Shown piece after piece: positions 29,252-45,207 of a stretch of 64,000 bases of DNA (position 1 is its first letter; every line of letters begins with the position of its first letter). A program made the position numbers and the translations under genes. The notes below the pieces were generated by a model. It had not been told where the DNA came from, did no database searches, and saw nothing but the letters and a program-made list of their open reading frames with translations. The stretch is from contig CAVVEU010000033.1 in assembly GCA_963747235.1 (NCBI GenBank), positions 192,001 through 256,000 of the forward strand, given 5' to 3'. The stretch is from an uncultured Candidatus Rokubacteria bacterium (GTDB taxonomy: Bacteria; Methylomirabilota; Methylomirabilia; Rokubacteriales; CSP1-6).

Positions 29252-30537
29252 GCGAGCCCGCTCCCTCCGCGCCCGCGCTGCCGGTGCGCTGGCGCCTGCT
29301 GACGATCCTCACCGTGTCCTATGGCGCGGGCGCCTTCGGCATGCTCGGCATCTCGCCGCTGTCGCCGAGCCTGGTGGAGGGGCTCGGGCTCACGCGCTTC
29401 CAGGTCGCGTTCCTCATCCCGTCCATCTATCTCTCCGGGCTCCTCTTCTCGCTGCCCGGCGGCCGCCTCGCCGATCGGCTCGGCGTGCGTCCGTCGTTCC
29501 TGGGCGGCCTCGCGGTGGCCGCGATCGGGCTGCTCGCCGCCGCGCTCGCGCCCGGCTTCCTCGCCTTCCTCGTCTGTCTCTTCGTGGCGGGCAGCGGCTG
29601 GAGCGTGGTGAACCCGGCGCTGGGCAAGGCGATCATGGACGTCTTCCCGGTGAGCGAGCGCGGCATCGCGATGGGCGTCAAGCAGATGGGGCTCACGCTG
29701 GGCGGCCTGGTCGCCGCGCTGGCCCTGCCCGCGATCGCGGCCACGCTCGGCTGGCGCTACGCGGTCGGCGCGTGCTCGGTGATCGTGGCGGTGCCGGTGG
29801 CGCTCGGCTGGCGGCCGCTCGCCGCGTTCAACGCGGGGGCGCGCGGCGCGGCGGCCACCGCGCGGCTCGGGCGACACGGCATCGAGCTGGTGGTGGGCGC
29901 GGCGGCCCGCGCTGGTCATCTTCTTCGCCACCGGCTTCGTGCTCGGCATGGTCCAGGGCGCGGTGCTGAGCTACCTGCCGCTCTTCACGATCCAGGGGCT
30001 CGGCTTCGACAAGATCGGCGCCGGCCTCCTCGTGGCCTCGTCGCAGGCGGGCGGCGCGGTCTCCCGCCTCGTCCTGGGCGCGGCCAGCGATCGCTGGGCC
30101 GCCGGCCGGCGCTCGCTCTGGCTGGCGTTCACGGGCGCCGTCGGCGCGGCCATCTTCTCCGTCTACGCGGTCTGGCCCGCCACCTCGGCCGGCCTGGCGG
30201 GGATGCTCGCCTTCGCCACCGGCGTCGGCGCCTACGGCTGGGTCGGCATCTTCTTCGTGATCAGCGTGGAGGCCGGCGGCCGGGACCAGGCCGGGCTGCT
30301 GAGCGGCGTGGCCTTCGCCGCCATCGTGCTCGGGCCTCCTCGATCGGCCCGCCCATCTTCGGCCTGCTGCTCGAGGGCTTCGACTCCTACGCGGTCGCCT
30401 GGGCCGTCTTCGCCGTCCTCTCCGGCCTCGTCGCCATCATCTCCCTCCTCGCCGGCCCCGCCATCGACCGCGAATCCGGGGTCAGGTCTTGCATTCCGAC
30501 ATCGCGCCGCGTCGAAATGTCGGAATGTAAGACCTGA
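29248..30537 (+). CDS. MFS transporter (frameshifted; stop lies in an inverted repeat as sequenced)
   Basis: GRLADRLG motif A, ERGIAMG, GAASDR and multiple TM helices. Confidence 0.85.
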   Translation: MSEPAPSAPALPVRWRLLTILTVSYGAGAFGMLGISPLSPSLVEGLGLTRFQVAFLIPSIYLSGLLFSLPGGRLADRLGVRPSFLGGLAVAAIGLLAAALAPGFLAFLVCLFVAGSGWSVVNPALGKAIMDVFPVSERGIAMGVKQMGLTLGGLVAALALPAIAATLGWRYAVGACSVIVAVPVALGWRPLAAFNAGARGAAATARLGRHGIELVVGAAARAGHLLRHRLRARHGPGRGAELPAALHDPGARLRQDRRRPPRGLVAGGRRGLPPRPGRGQRSLGRRPALALAGVHGRRRRGHLLRLRGLARHLGRPGGDARLRHRRRRLRLGRHLLRDQRGGRRPGPGRAAERRGLRRHRARASSIGPPIFGLLLEGFDSYAVAWAVFAVLSGLVAIISLLAGPAIDRESGVRSCIPTSRRVEMSECKT

Positions 30538-30570
30538 CCCGTGACGATGTCGTATTTCAAGACCGGACCC
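30479..30570. repeat. 24-bp-arm inverted repeat (REP/MITE-like) plus a degenerate third arm
   Basis: GGGTCAGGTCTTGCATTCCGACAT (30479-30502) / ATGTCGGAATGTAAGACCTGACCC (30517-30540); degenerate copy at 30547-30570. Confidence 0.8.
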
Positions 30571-36348: not shown

Positions 36349-36429
36349 CCCCTCACCCTGCCCTCTCCCCTGAGGGGAGAGGGGGAGTTCGACCCCCTCT
36401 CCCTTCCAGGGAGAGGGTTGGGGTGAGGG
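36349..36429. repeat. Inverted pair of CCCCTCACCC-type palindromic repeats between convergent genes
   Basis: CCCCTCACCCTGCCCTCTCCCCTGAGGGGAGAGGG followed by an opposite-orientation copy ending GGGAGAGGGTTGGGGTGAGGG. Confidence 0.85.
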
Positions 36430-42216: not shown

Positions 42217-42312
42217 TCCAAACGTTCGCGCTAACCGGCCGCCGAGGAGCGAAGCGACGAGGGATCCCGCAAGCGCAGCTTGCGGACGGTCCGGTTGAGC
42301 GCGGGGTTAGGG
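42217..42312 (-). mobile_element. attC site (full length)
   Basis: Minus strand CCCTAAC-cccgcGCTCAACCGGAC...GGCCGGTTAGCGCgaac-GTTTGGA; imperfect palindrome with internal CGCAAGC/GCTTGCG hairpin. Confidence 0.85.
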
Positions 42313-42369
42313 GCCATCCTGGCCGGCGGGCGATACGGGCAGGCGGATACGCGGACGCGTGGCCTTGGG

Positions 42370-43206: not shown

Positions 43207-43225
43207 CCCTACCGGCGGCTTATCC
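43207..43225 (-). mobile_element. Collapsed (19-bp) degenerate attC
   Basis: Minus strand GGATAAG-CCGCC-GGTAGGG; the GNAT cassette begins TTATCCCTCAT and ends ATGAGGGATAA (complementary). Confidence 0.6.
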
Positions 43226-43226
43226 C

Positions 43227-43646
43227 TCATAGGGCTTTCTTCATCAGCGCGAGATAGAAGCCCTTGGCGTAGCCCTCAAGCCGGACTACCTCCTCGTAGC
43301 CATGCTTTTGGTAGAACCGCGGCGCCTGCCACTCGAAGGTCTCGAGAGCCGCGTTTCGCGCCCCCATCTCTCTCGCGAGACACTCGGCCTCAGTCAATAA
43401 TCGGGAGCCGATGCCCCTCCCGCGCGCAGCCTCGTCAACCCAAAGAACTTCGACACGGAGCCAATAGAGCGCCACAATCGCTCGAATTCCACCTACGACG
43501 GACCCATCGGCCTCTCGGGCGTTGAGCCGAATGTACTCCGTCGCCGGGTACTCGCCGACATACGTATGGTTGAACTCGCGAAGCCGGCGACCAATCTCAC
43601 CGGACTGAACCTCTTCTTCGGTGGCAAGCGAAATGGTGACAGTCAT
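43227..43646 (-). CDS. Cassette-borne GNAT acetyltransferase
   Basis: LWVDEAARGRGIGSRLL and FEWQAPRFYQKHGY motifs. Confidence 0.85.
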   Translation of the reverse strand: MTVTISLATEEEVQSGEIGRRLREFNHTYVGEYPATEYIRLNAREADGSVVGGIRAIVALYWLRVEVLWVDEAARGRGIGSRLLTEAECLAREMGARNAALETFEWQAPRFYQKHGYEEVVRLEGYAKGFYLALMKKAL

Positions 43647-43649
43647 GAG

Positions 43650-43667
43650 GGATAACGTGCGTTAGGT
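43650..43667 (-). mobile_element. Collapsed (18-bp) attC
   Basis: Minus strand ACCTAAC-GCAC-GTTATCC; the R'' contains the upstream gene's TAA stop. Confidence 0.7.
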
Positions 43668-43976
43668 GGAATACGCAGGGCCACCTACGCCAGGAACCAC
43701 CATCGTTTTAAGGATTACCGATTCCCGGTCGGTTGCCAACGACAACAGCTCGAGGTCAGCGCGATAGGCAGCGAACTGTTCCTGACCAGGGAAGCTGACA
43801 AGATGTATCTCAAACGGGATATCCGGCGAATTCTCTTGCCCCGTGCGAATCACCTTTTCGATTGAGCCGCCATACTTCCTCATGATTCGGGCCGCCTTTC
43901 GCTCATAGGCTTCGAATTCAGCAACGGCGCCTGGGCGGACCCACAGACTTACGACCCGATAGATTGGACTCTGCAC
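43662..43976 (-). CDS. Cassette-borne DUF1330-like dimeric alpha/beta barrel protein
   Basis: YERKAARIMRKYGG..EIHLVSFP..FAAYRAD; GGAGG RBS before GTG. Confidence 0.65.
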   Translation of the reverse strand: MQSPIYRVVSLWVRPGAVAEFEAYERKAARIMRKYGGSIEKVIRTGQENSPDIPFEIHLVSFPGQEQFAAYRADLELLSLATDRESVILKTMVVPGVGGPAYST

Positions 43977-43992
43977 TCAAACCTCCAAGCCC

Positions 43993-44011
43993 ACCCAACG
44001 ATTTGTTAGAC
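43993..44011 (-). mobile_element. Collapsed (19-bp) attC
   Basis: Minus strand GTCTAAC-AAATC-GTTGGGT; GCGTCTAAC complements the cassette start GTTAGACGC. Confidence 0.7.
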
Positions 44012-44531: not shown

Positions 44532-44545
44532 GATGTCTCCTTGGC

Positions 44546-44615
44546 GTCTAACGATCCCGCTCAGCGGCCGGGGTGAGCAACGCGAACCCCGGTCCGCTGC
44601 AGTGGGAAGTTAGAC
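44546..44615 (-). mobile_element. attC site (70 bp)
   Basis: Minus strand GTCTAAC-ttccca-CTGCAGCGGACCGGGG...CCCCGGCCGCTGAG-cgggatc-GTTAGAC. Confidence 0.9.
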
Positions 44616-44618
44616 GCC

Positions 44619-44916: not shown

Positions 44917-44988
44917 CTCTAACTAGAAGTATCTAGGTCTGGATAATTCGGCCGGGCGCGGGCTTGATGCGGATAATCCGGCCGGGCG
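44917..44988 (-). mobile_element. attI-like site with upstream direct repeats
   Basis: Minus-strand core GTTAGAG with no attC palindrome upstream; 18-bp direct repeats GGATAATYCGGCCGGGCG at 44941 and 44971. Confidence 0.65.
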
Positions 44989-45207
44989 GACCGGGGCGGT
45001 TTGGCTGGAGCGGCTTTGGGGGATGCGGGGTTGCGCATGGTCCCGTGGTGCGGGTCTAGTTTTACACAGACCTGGACATTTCTGGATGGGAGCTCGGGGG
45101 ACGGGGTGCGGGAGTTCCGGCCGACGGGTTCGACGCTTTGCGCTATGATGAGGCGCTCTCGGCCCGGATGCGCTCGGGCCTCGATCCCCGCAGTCGAAGG
45201 AGACGGT

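Follow-up and report, generated by a model that had tools for sequence, protein, structure and literature searches.

Integron arrays are usually viewed as sets of independently mobile genes. Whether neighbouring cassettes can instead become joined to one another, and at which nucleotides their attC sites then break, is the question raised by a cassette array on a 64,000-nucleotide (nt) stretch of DNA (the window; contig CAVVEU010000033.1, positions 192,001–256,000, or G000:C33:192001-256000) from an uncultured Candidatus Rokubacteria bacterium. The source assembly comprised 5.57 Mb with 71% G+C in 42 contigs and was 88% complete. Within the array, four genes were separated by three sites of only 18–19 nt, here called mini-sites. 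They encode a VOC/glyoxalase-family protein, a protein of 104 amino acids (aa), a GNAT acetyltransferase and an S-adenosylmethionine (SAM)-dependent methyltransferase. An earlier note on the window had interpreted the mini-sites as attC remnants, with R'' and R' boxes 4–5 nt apart and without L boxes and stem. Full attCs on the same cassettes elsewhere bore this interpretation out: three attC stubs with known parents show cassettes becoming a fixed unit, and the known parents reveal the nucleotides at which the attC sites break.

Reduced attC sites at three cassette junctions

All three strings were present on the minus strand where the earlier note had placed them. Site 1 reads GTCTAAC(44011-44005)-AAATC-GTTGGGT(43999-43993), site 2 ACCTAAC(43667-43661)-GCAC-GTTATCC(43656-43650) and site 3 GGATAAG(43225-43219)-CCGCC-GGTAGGG(43213-43207). 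Comparison with other copies of the four cassettes showed, with high confidence, that the sites are attC remnants at true cassette junctions. Each consists of an R'' (6–7 nt), a spacer of 4–5 nt and the R' of the downstream cassette, while L'', the variable loop and L' have been lost from all three. The search covered 41 relatives first and then all 183 genomes of the order, with genome G048 counted only within the order-wide tallies. Among these relatives and order-wide genomes, each of the four genes occurred alone, and homology to the window ended at the mini-sites.

The VOC cassette was 93–97% identical in three other genomes (G013, G008 and G036) and on contig C18 of the same genome. Its 112-nt tail, ending ...GTCTAAC-AAATC-G, was 90–96% identical in 10 other genomes, and a full attC of ~70 nt came next in eight of them. 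The remaining two carried a partial collapse (L033) and another mini-site, GTCTAA|T-GAGC-GTTAGGC (L041). Contigs from two soil or cave sequencing runs (X1 and X4) contained the same tail, continuing into L''. At site 1 of the window, the R'' GTCTAAC and the parental AAATC are followed by G|TTGGGT, the 104-aa cassette's own R'.

The 104-aa gene was found as a separate cassette in six other genomes (96–97% identical). It started with GTTAGGT or GTTGGGT right after a model-detected attC at four loci (L026, L027, L028 and L029), after an attI-like motif in L030 and with a different start in L031. The cassette ended ...ACCTAAC, with a full 61-nt attC next in 5/6 genomes; in L027 the next gene began three bases past ACCTAAC. 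The homology of all six to the window stopped at 43661, as did that of a contig from run X2 carrying the 104-aa cassette with a full attC.

The GTTATCC of site 2 is the GNAT cassette's own R'. Full-length GNAT relatives, up to 95% identical, were present on metagenome contigs. Fourteen metagenome loci of ≥81% protein identity included a 3' flank, and in eight of them the gene was followed by a full model-detected attC starting GGATAAC-AACGC. The cassette started right after a model-detected attC in 14 loci, as G|TTATCC-CTC-ATG or a close variant. At site 3, the window departed from the parental GNAT attC after GGATAA.

The GGTAGGG of site 3 corresponds to the methyltransferase R' GTTAGGG with a T changed to G. 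In front of methyltransferase homologues, L106 has GTTAGGG and L107 has GTTTGAG, so that the boundary was visible in two of five close loci. Its own attC begins CCCTAAC, the complement of GTTAGGG. Full parental attCs elsewhere, the homology breaks and the downstream boundaries together identify all three sites as junctions where little more than R'' and a few bases is left of the upstream attC.

Relatives of the methyltransferase, 78–87% identical, occurred in records of several phyla. Their loci include L105, L106 and L107. The titles of the records with 81–87% identity name Solimonas, Stenotrophobium and Aeromicrobium; a relative of 78% was in a Verrucomicrobiia record. The gene has spread across phyla.

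The mini-sites were also compared with functional attCs by means of a covariance model (R1), built from 14 attCs of relatives without any window sequence; it is our own model and not that of IntegronFinder. On the window array, R1 detected exactly two strong attCs, which flank the four genes (Table 1). It gave no match at any mini-site in 43207–44011 (E up to 1), in agreement with the expectation of the earlier note that attC models would miss them. The predicted folds of the mini-sites on both strands ranged from 0 to −3.4 kcal/mol (z ~0). The flanking attC DNA folded at −30.7 kcal/mol (44543–44618; z −7.3) and −25.4 kcal/mol (42226–42315; z −3.0). With their R boxes 4–5 nt apart, the sites are far shorter than the parental attCs (60–75 nt) and fall below the published attC range of 57–141 nt (PMC12901181; this paper, PMC4670013 and PMC8876359 are cited here from the parts that were available). 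Of the features of a functional attC, the L''/L' boxes with extrahelical bases, the variable loop, a stable hairpin and detection by the model were absent at the mini-sites.

Origin of the reduced sites

The position of the breaks could be read against the parental sites. At site 1, the parental left spacer AAATC and the first G of L'' were retained and were followed by TTGGGT of the next cassette. At site 3 and at the independent mini-site L041, ..TAA was retained and the C of AAC replaced, and site 2 was broken at AA|C or one base later. The parental left/right spacers were AAATC/AACC for the VOC tail, AAGTC/AAAC for the 104-aa cassette and AACGC/GAGC for the GNAT cassette. The spacers of site 2 (GCAC), site 3 (CCGCC) and L041 (GAGC) matched neither the left nor the right parental spacer and ended in C before G, as did 18/18 aligned attC right ends. 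Such spacers indicate that, at site 2, site 3 and L041, the R'' of an attC has been connected to a right-hand end from a different attC.

In an attC, R''-spacer-L'' (left half) and L'-spacer-R' (right half) repeat one box pattern in direct orientation. G|TT is the cut position of the integron integrase (PMC12901181), and AA|C probably is a cut position as well. Because the half-sites are direct repeats and the breaks fall at integrase cut positions, we favour illegitimate integrase-type crossovers between attC half-sites over hairpin-driven slippage, and give them an even chance of being the actual origin. For site 1, the exchange would lie at the first G of L'' and connect it to the TT of an R'. 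At sites 2 and 3, AA|C of R'' would have recombined with another attC, bringing in the right-hand spacer and R' of that attC and deleting the DNA in between. Partridge and co-workers proposed an analogous exchange for class 1 integrons, in which the R'' of an attC recombines with the attI L box (cited in PMC12901181).

Other origins were rejected. The earlier note had considered hairpin excision, which as one internal deletion per site could fit site 1, where alone the parental spacer is kept, but is ruled out for sites 2 and 3 by their non-parental spacers. Nested insertion of a cassette into a left half-site predicts parental left spacers everywhere and residual attC sequence farther downstream, neither of which was seen. 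The attI of this lineage, ending ..CTTCTA|GTT, does not fit the spacers AAATC, GCAC and CCGCC.

The same anatomy could have been reached without an integrase if attC hairpins were removed repeatedly, by replication slippage across the stem or by nuclease cutting and rejoining, once the attCs were no longer needed. We regard this as quite possible, although short of an even chance. Slippage at attC stem-loops is one proposed route to fused cassettes (PMC8876359) and could explain site 1 through a 2-nt CG microhomology. Partial attC collapses in relatives, with 3–5 nt of microhomology (AGC in L033, GCT in G036 after the VOC cassette, GCTGC in G008 before the GNAT cassette), show slippage acting, and copies of the GNAT cassette have lost their attC at many scattered positions, beyond the canonical cut points. 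A one-hairpin deletion, however, cannot yield the non-parental spacers of site 2, site 3 and L041, and slippage between separate attCs, hundreds of bases apart and without homology, is unlikely. The breaks also fall at AA|C or AAC| in four of the five R''-retaining junctions with known parents (site 2, site 3, L041 and L027), the fifth, site 1, breaking at the first G of L''.

The microhomologies at site 1 and in the relatives and the scattered losses of the GNAT attC count against half-site crossovers, and further points weigh against the account given here. The proposed origin rests on four or five junctions, and no donor attC was found for the spacer of site 2 or of site 3. The block of four genes was not found as a unit in the 183 genomes of the order or in four sequencing runs. 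The strict mini-site motif showed no general excess across 48 other array loci. The three junctions rest on one assembly, with at most 0.27 of the sampled words present in any sequencing run; no run contig bridged a junction, an absence of cover that is not evidence.

The mini-sites might still be active as double-stranded, attI-like simple sites, an option raised in the earlier note that would leave the four genes unlocked and is compatible with either origin. We consider this improbable. In their box-spacer-box layout, sites 1 and 2 resemble a simple site, but site 3 carries GGT in the position of the conserved and essential triplet GTT, which speaks against activity at that site. Remnants of attI as short as 11 bp, downstream of a gene, support excision (4–28%) and insertion by IntI1 (PMC12901181), whereas IntI1 did not act on a truncated blaGES-1 attC, both genes of the fusion being excised as one unit (PMC4670013). 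In no other genome examined did these mini-sites connect different cassettes.

An assembly artefact, with full attCs in the real genome and hairpins dropped by the assembler or polisher, is very unlikely. The assembly is of metagenome type and incomplete, and two genes near the array carry three 1-nt insertions relative to the sister contig G013:C14 that are possibly sequencing errors. Against this, both flanking attCs of the same array were assembled intact, hairpin skipping cannot account for the non-parental spacers at sites 2 and 3, and no more than 7 nt is common to the flanks, probably too little for a chimeric join. The similar mini-site L041 occurs in an independent assembly.

The motif of the sites was evaluated separately. 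Fits to RYYYAAC/GTTRRRY were 14/14 for site 1, 12/14 for site 2 and 9/14 for site 3. The exact motif RYYYAAC-N4-6-GTTRRRY had a single occurrence in the 5.57-Mb genome, which was site 1, against a composition estimate of ~3.6 per genome; genome-wide enrichment was rejected. In the 3.2-kb array, 0.004 exact matches were expected, and at least one was obtained in 9 of 2000 first-order Markov simulations. Matches with two mismatches, as in site 2, were background, with 1439 across the genome and an expectation of 1.46 for the array; site 3, with five mismatches, was no match. The earlier note had required the motif to exceed background; site 1 did so within the array, whereas sites 2 and 3 did not, and motif statistics alone lift only site 1 above chance. 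A fourth candidate, AGATAAG-GAGGT-GTTCGCA (~41303–41285, at a GGACT/DUF2277 gene junction), was rejected, as the corresponding block of G013:C14 reads AGGTGAG-GAGGG-GCGCGCA. Since this look-alike proved to be chance, reading the motif alone is unsafe here. It is the comparison of the cassettes with their other copies, not the motif, by which all three sites are confirmed. That the sites are chance matches in the spacers of an ordinary four-gene operon can practically be dismissed: sites 2 and 3 are at background by motif and the look-alike was chance, but the genes are mobile separately elsewhere, with full attCs starting with exactly the R'' seen in the window, and the homology breaks fall at the sites.

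The survey of the 48 other array loci covered 120,624 nt with 112 model attCs, using the strict motif at spacings 3–5. It gave three matches on the array strand (L041, real; L067, ambiguous; L071, within a gene) and two on the control strand. At the survey rate, ~0.07 strict matches would be expected in one 3.2-kb array, and the two found in the window array are therefore unexpected. Such sites were rare in the 48 loci, and the run of three is unusual. The earlier suggestion of a systematic mechanism has mixed support. Several further forms of attC erosion occur commonly in the lineage. Three mini-sites in one array might be explained if co-expression without hairpins was selected for once the integrase had been lost.

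Among the relatives, half-collapsed attCs with L'' and L' merged (inner 16–19 nt) were observed at loci including L033 (G081), L022 (G036:C1), L018 (G008:C13) and L023 (G017:C118). In the same set of relatives, a 16-nt palindrome, GTGTCTA-AC-TAGACAC, precedes a methyltransferase homologue.

The four-gene unit and its surroundings

The array comprises six cassettes, with a full attC on two, a mini-site on three and no detected site on the last (Table 1); their genes are short, as is usual for integron cassettes. Since the mini-sites are unable to fold into the single-stranded hairpin used by the integrase, we infer from this anatomy that the VOC, 104-aa, GNAT and methyltransferase genes, lying between two intact attCs, form one 2.3-kb fused cassette, in line with one of the two options raised in the earlier note, a multigene cassette. 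The unit measures 2329 nt, from 44551 (TT of the R' of the first attC) to 42223 (G of the R' of the second), and is closed by a complete attC. Its reading frames are intact, and all four proteins are full length relative to their relatives. The block would be excisable only as a whole, by IntI encoded in trans on contig C18. The gaps between the genes are 102, 15 and 38 nt, and such short, hairpin-free spacers would give the block an operon-like layout.

Only 10 nt (TTATCCCTC, window 43647–43656) separate the GNAT cassette boundary from the ATG, without a Shine-Dalgarno sequence, in the window and in most metagenome copies (L053–L099). In the window the upstream stop codon is 15 nt away, and translational coupling is possible.

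Table 1. Features of the cassette array, in window positions (R1, covariance model for attC; ORF, open reading frame).
Feature	Position	Strand	Remarks
Integron cassette array	~45090 to 41800	minus	attI-like leader and six cassettes, without integrase
attI-like leader, ending ...CTTCTA|GTTAGAG	44918–45090	minus	No adjoining integrase gene
Cassette 1, predicted membrane protein, 85 aa	44619–44876	minus	ORF, without Pfam family
Intact attC GTCTAAC...GTTAGAC	44546–44615	minus	R1 73.3 bits, E 1.3e-17; upstream limit of fused unit
VOC/glyoxalase-family gene, 150 aa	44079–44531	minus	PF00903, 6.2e-10; followed by 67-nt tail ending in R''
Mini-site 1 GTCTAAC-AAATC-GTTGGGT	43993–44011	minus	VOC/104-aa junction
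104-aa gene	43662–43976	minus	Weak DUF1330 match (PF07045, E 0.0081, 17 bits, below Pfam cut-off of 23)
Mini-site 2 ACCTAAC-GCAC-GTTATCC	43650–43667	minus	104-aa/GNAT junction; R'' includes TAA stop
GNAT acetyltransferase gene, 139 aa	43227–43646	minus	PF13508, 1.9e-14
Mini-site 3 GGATAAG-CCGCC-GGTAGGG	43207–43225	minus	GNAT/methyltransferase junction
SAM-dependent methyltransferase gene, 272 aa	42370–43188	minus	PF08241, 1.9e-26
Intact attC CCCTAAC...GTTTGGA	42217–42312	minus	R1 47.5 bits, E 1.8e-10; downstream limit of fused unit
Last cassette, predicted membrane protein, 126 aa	41827–42207	minus	ORF; 89% identical copy in G013:C21 array; R1 scan of 41827–41670 found no attC after gene

Across ~45090–40400 of the window, G+C fell to 62–66%. 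The leader (~170 nt) was 85% identical to C18:18153-17983, directly downstream of the intact intI on contig C18, and its motif also stands before the first cassette in G013:C21. The genome's only integron integrase gene is at C18:18188-19132 (457.8 bits with TIGR02249, zero internal stops); among the genome's contigs, this profile matched above its cut-off on C18 only, and the contig of the window was without any match. In this lineage, intI, attI and cassettes share one orientation. In the window, the gene adjoining the attI leader encodes a FecR domain, and the array lacks the intI beside attI and cassettes that defines a complete integron. We infer that the array lost its own integrase and is eroding.

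Further integrase losses were observed in relatives. Beside the attI-like leader of the G013 array, only the last 31 residues of an integrase remain (G013:C21:632414-632506), and in G106:C3 the integrase match is split into pieces; integrase loss seems to be recurrent in this lineage. The C18 integron, which bears the integrase, has six strong attCs by R1 within 3.8 kb near the gene (C18:13765-17552). Farther from intI, an attC is cut after its left half, beside ORFs of a possible insertion sequence. The same integron also carries the VOC cassette once more, at 94% identity (C18:10920-11395).

Beyond the 126-aa gene lie three further genes of the GGACT family, of DUF2277 and of a PhnB-like type (3-dmu-9_3-mt family). 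In the sister genome (G013:C14, L203), a FecR gene stands directly beside this GGACT-DUF2277-PhnB block, and the array is absent. This places the end of the array proper after the 126-aa gene; the three genes form a conserved block outside it. In the window, the DUF2277 and PhnB-like genes (minus strand, 41287–40418) both have frames broken by three 1-base insertions (~41215, 41080 and 40853), counted relative to the 85%-identical block of G013:C14; they are either real pseudogenes or sequencing errors.

The empty-site comparison with L203 involved window positions 45200–45060 and 41720–41664. A short motif, CTGTGTAA..GACCCGCA, was present at the empty site of G013:C14, at the proximal end of the window insert and downstream of the C18 intI. 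With the motif at these places, the entire attI-plus-cassette segment looks inserted or moved into the window locus. Outside the array, the window contains two strong inverted repeats (30479–30570 and 36356–36422). One is a perfect-spacing palindrome of 31 nt to which a third arm is related, the other a hairpin of CCCTCTCCCC/GGGGAGAGGG.

If the breaks in the attCs were made by an integrase, they would provide a built-in route from mobile cassettes to operons. A tentative extension of half-site crossover would be an integrase side reaction between attC half-sites (R'' with L', L'' with R'; cuts AA|C and G|TT) that deletes the interior of the hairpin together with intervening cassettes and leaves a double-stranded R''-spacer-R' simple site. 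Repetition of this reaction would lead to a fixed operon, and its products may be weakly recombinogenic, like Delta-attI1-11. Breaks made by an integrase would also be a source of short sites that escape standard attC detection, and environmental cassette counts would then be underestimated.

Comparison with known systems

Literature was searched by titles and abstracts, with most subscription journals outside the search. Within this scope, neither serial R''-spacer-R' sites in a chromosomal array nor crossovers between half-sites of two attCs were found described. The closest known systems are fused cassettes with a truncated attC in class 1 integrons, such as blaGES-1/aacA4, blaOXA-10/aadA1 and aadA1 in Tn1331 (PMC4670013, PMC8876359, PMC12901181). 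Among the 'unusual cassettes' that PMC12901181 cites from Partridge et al. 2009, they make up class (i); the same paper also cites a class of cassettes retaining only R''. Their attC is partially or totally lost, for which slippage or illegitimate integrase events have been proposed (PMC4670013, PMC8876359). As in the window, the upstream attC is partly lost, R'' may be its sole recognisable piece and neither coding region is lost; the next attC delimits the pair, which is moved or transcribed as one unit (PMC4670013, PMC8876359, PMC12901181). The window differs in that three consecutive sites fuse four genes, none of them a resistance gene, and the array is chromosomal, has no integrase and belongs to an environmental bacterium of high G+C. 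Its sites also share a uniform R''-spacer-R' geometry, and the parental attC was recovered for each of them.

Delta-attI1-11 cassettes likewise have a short box-spacer-G|TT site in place of the attC downstream of the gene, and for Delta-attI cassettes a crossover at the attC R'' with the L box of the partner has been proposed (PMC12901181). In contrast to these, the spacers of the mini-sites are unlike the attI end of the lineage (..CTTCTA|G) and resemble the right ends of other attCs. The crossover partner would therefore be an attC, not attI.

A cluster of attC sites lacking an integrase (CALIN), a term that reportedly comes from the IntegronFinder work, is also a cassette array without a neighbouring integrase. 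The window array differs from a CALIN in that the attI leader is kept and only two model-detected attCs are present for six cassettes. Single fusions through a truncated attC are already known from clinical integrons; three in a row, each with a parent that can be traced, are unusual.

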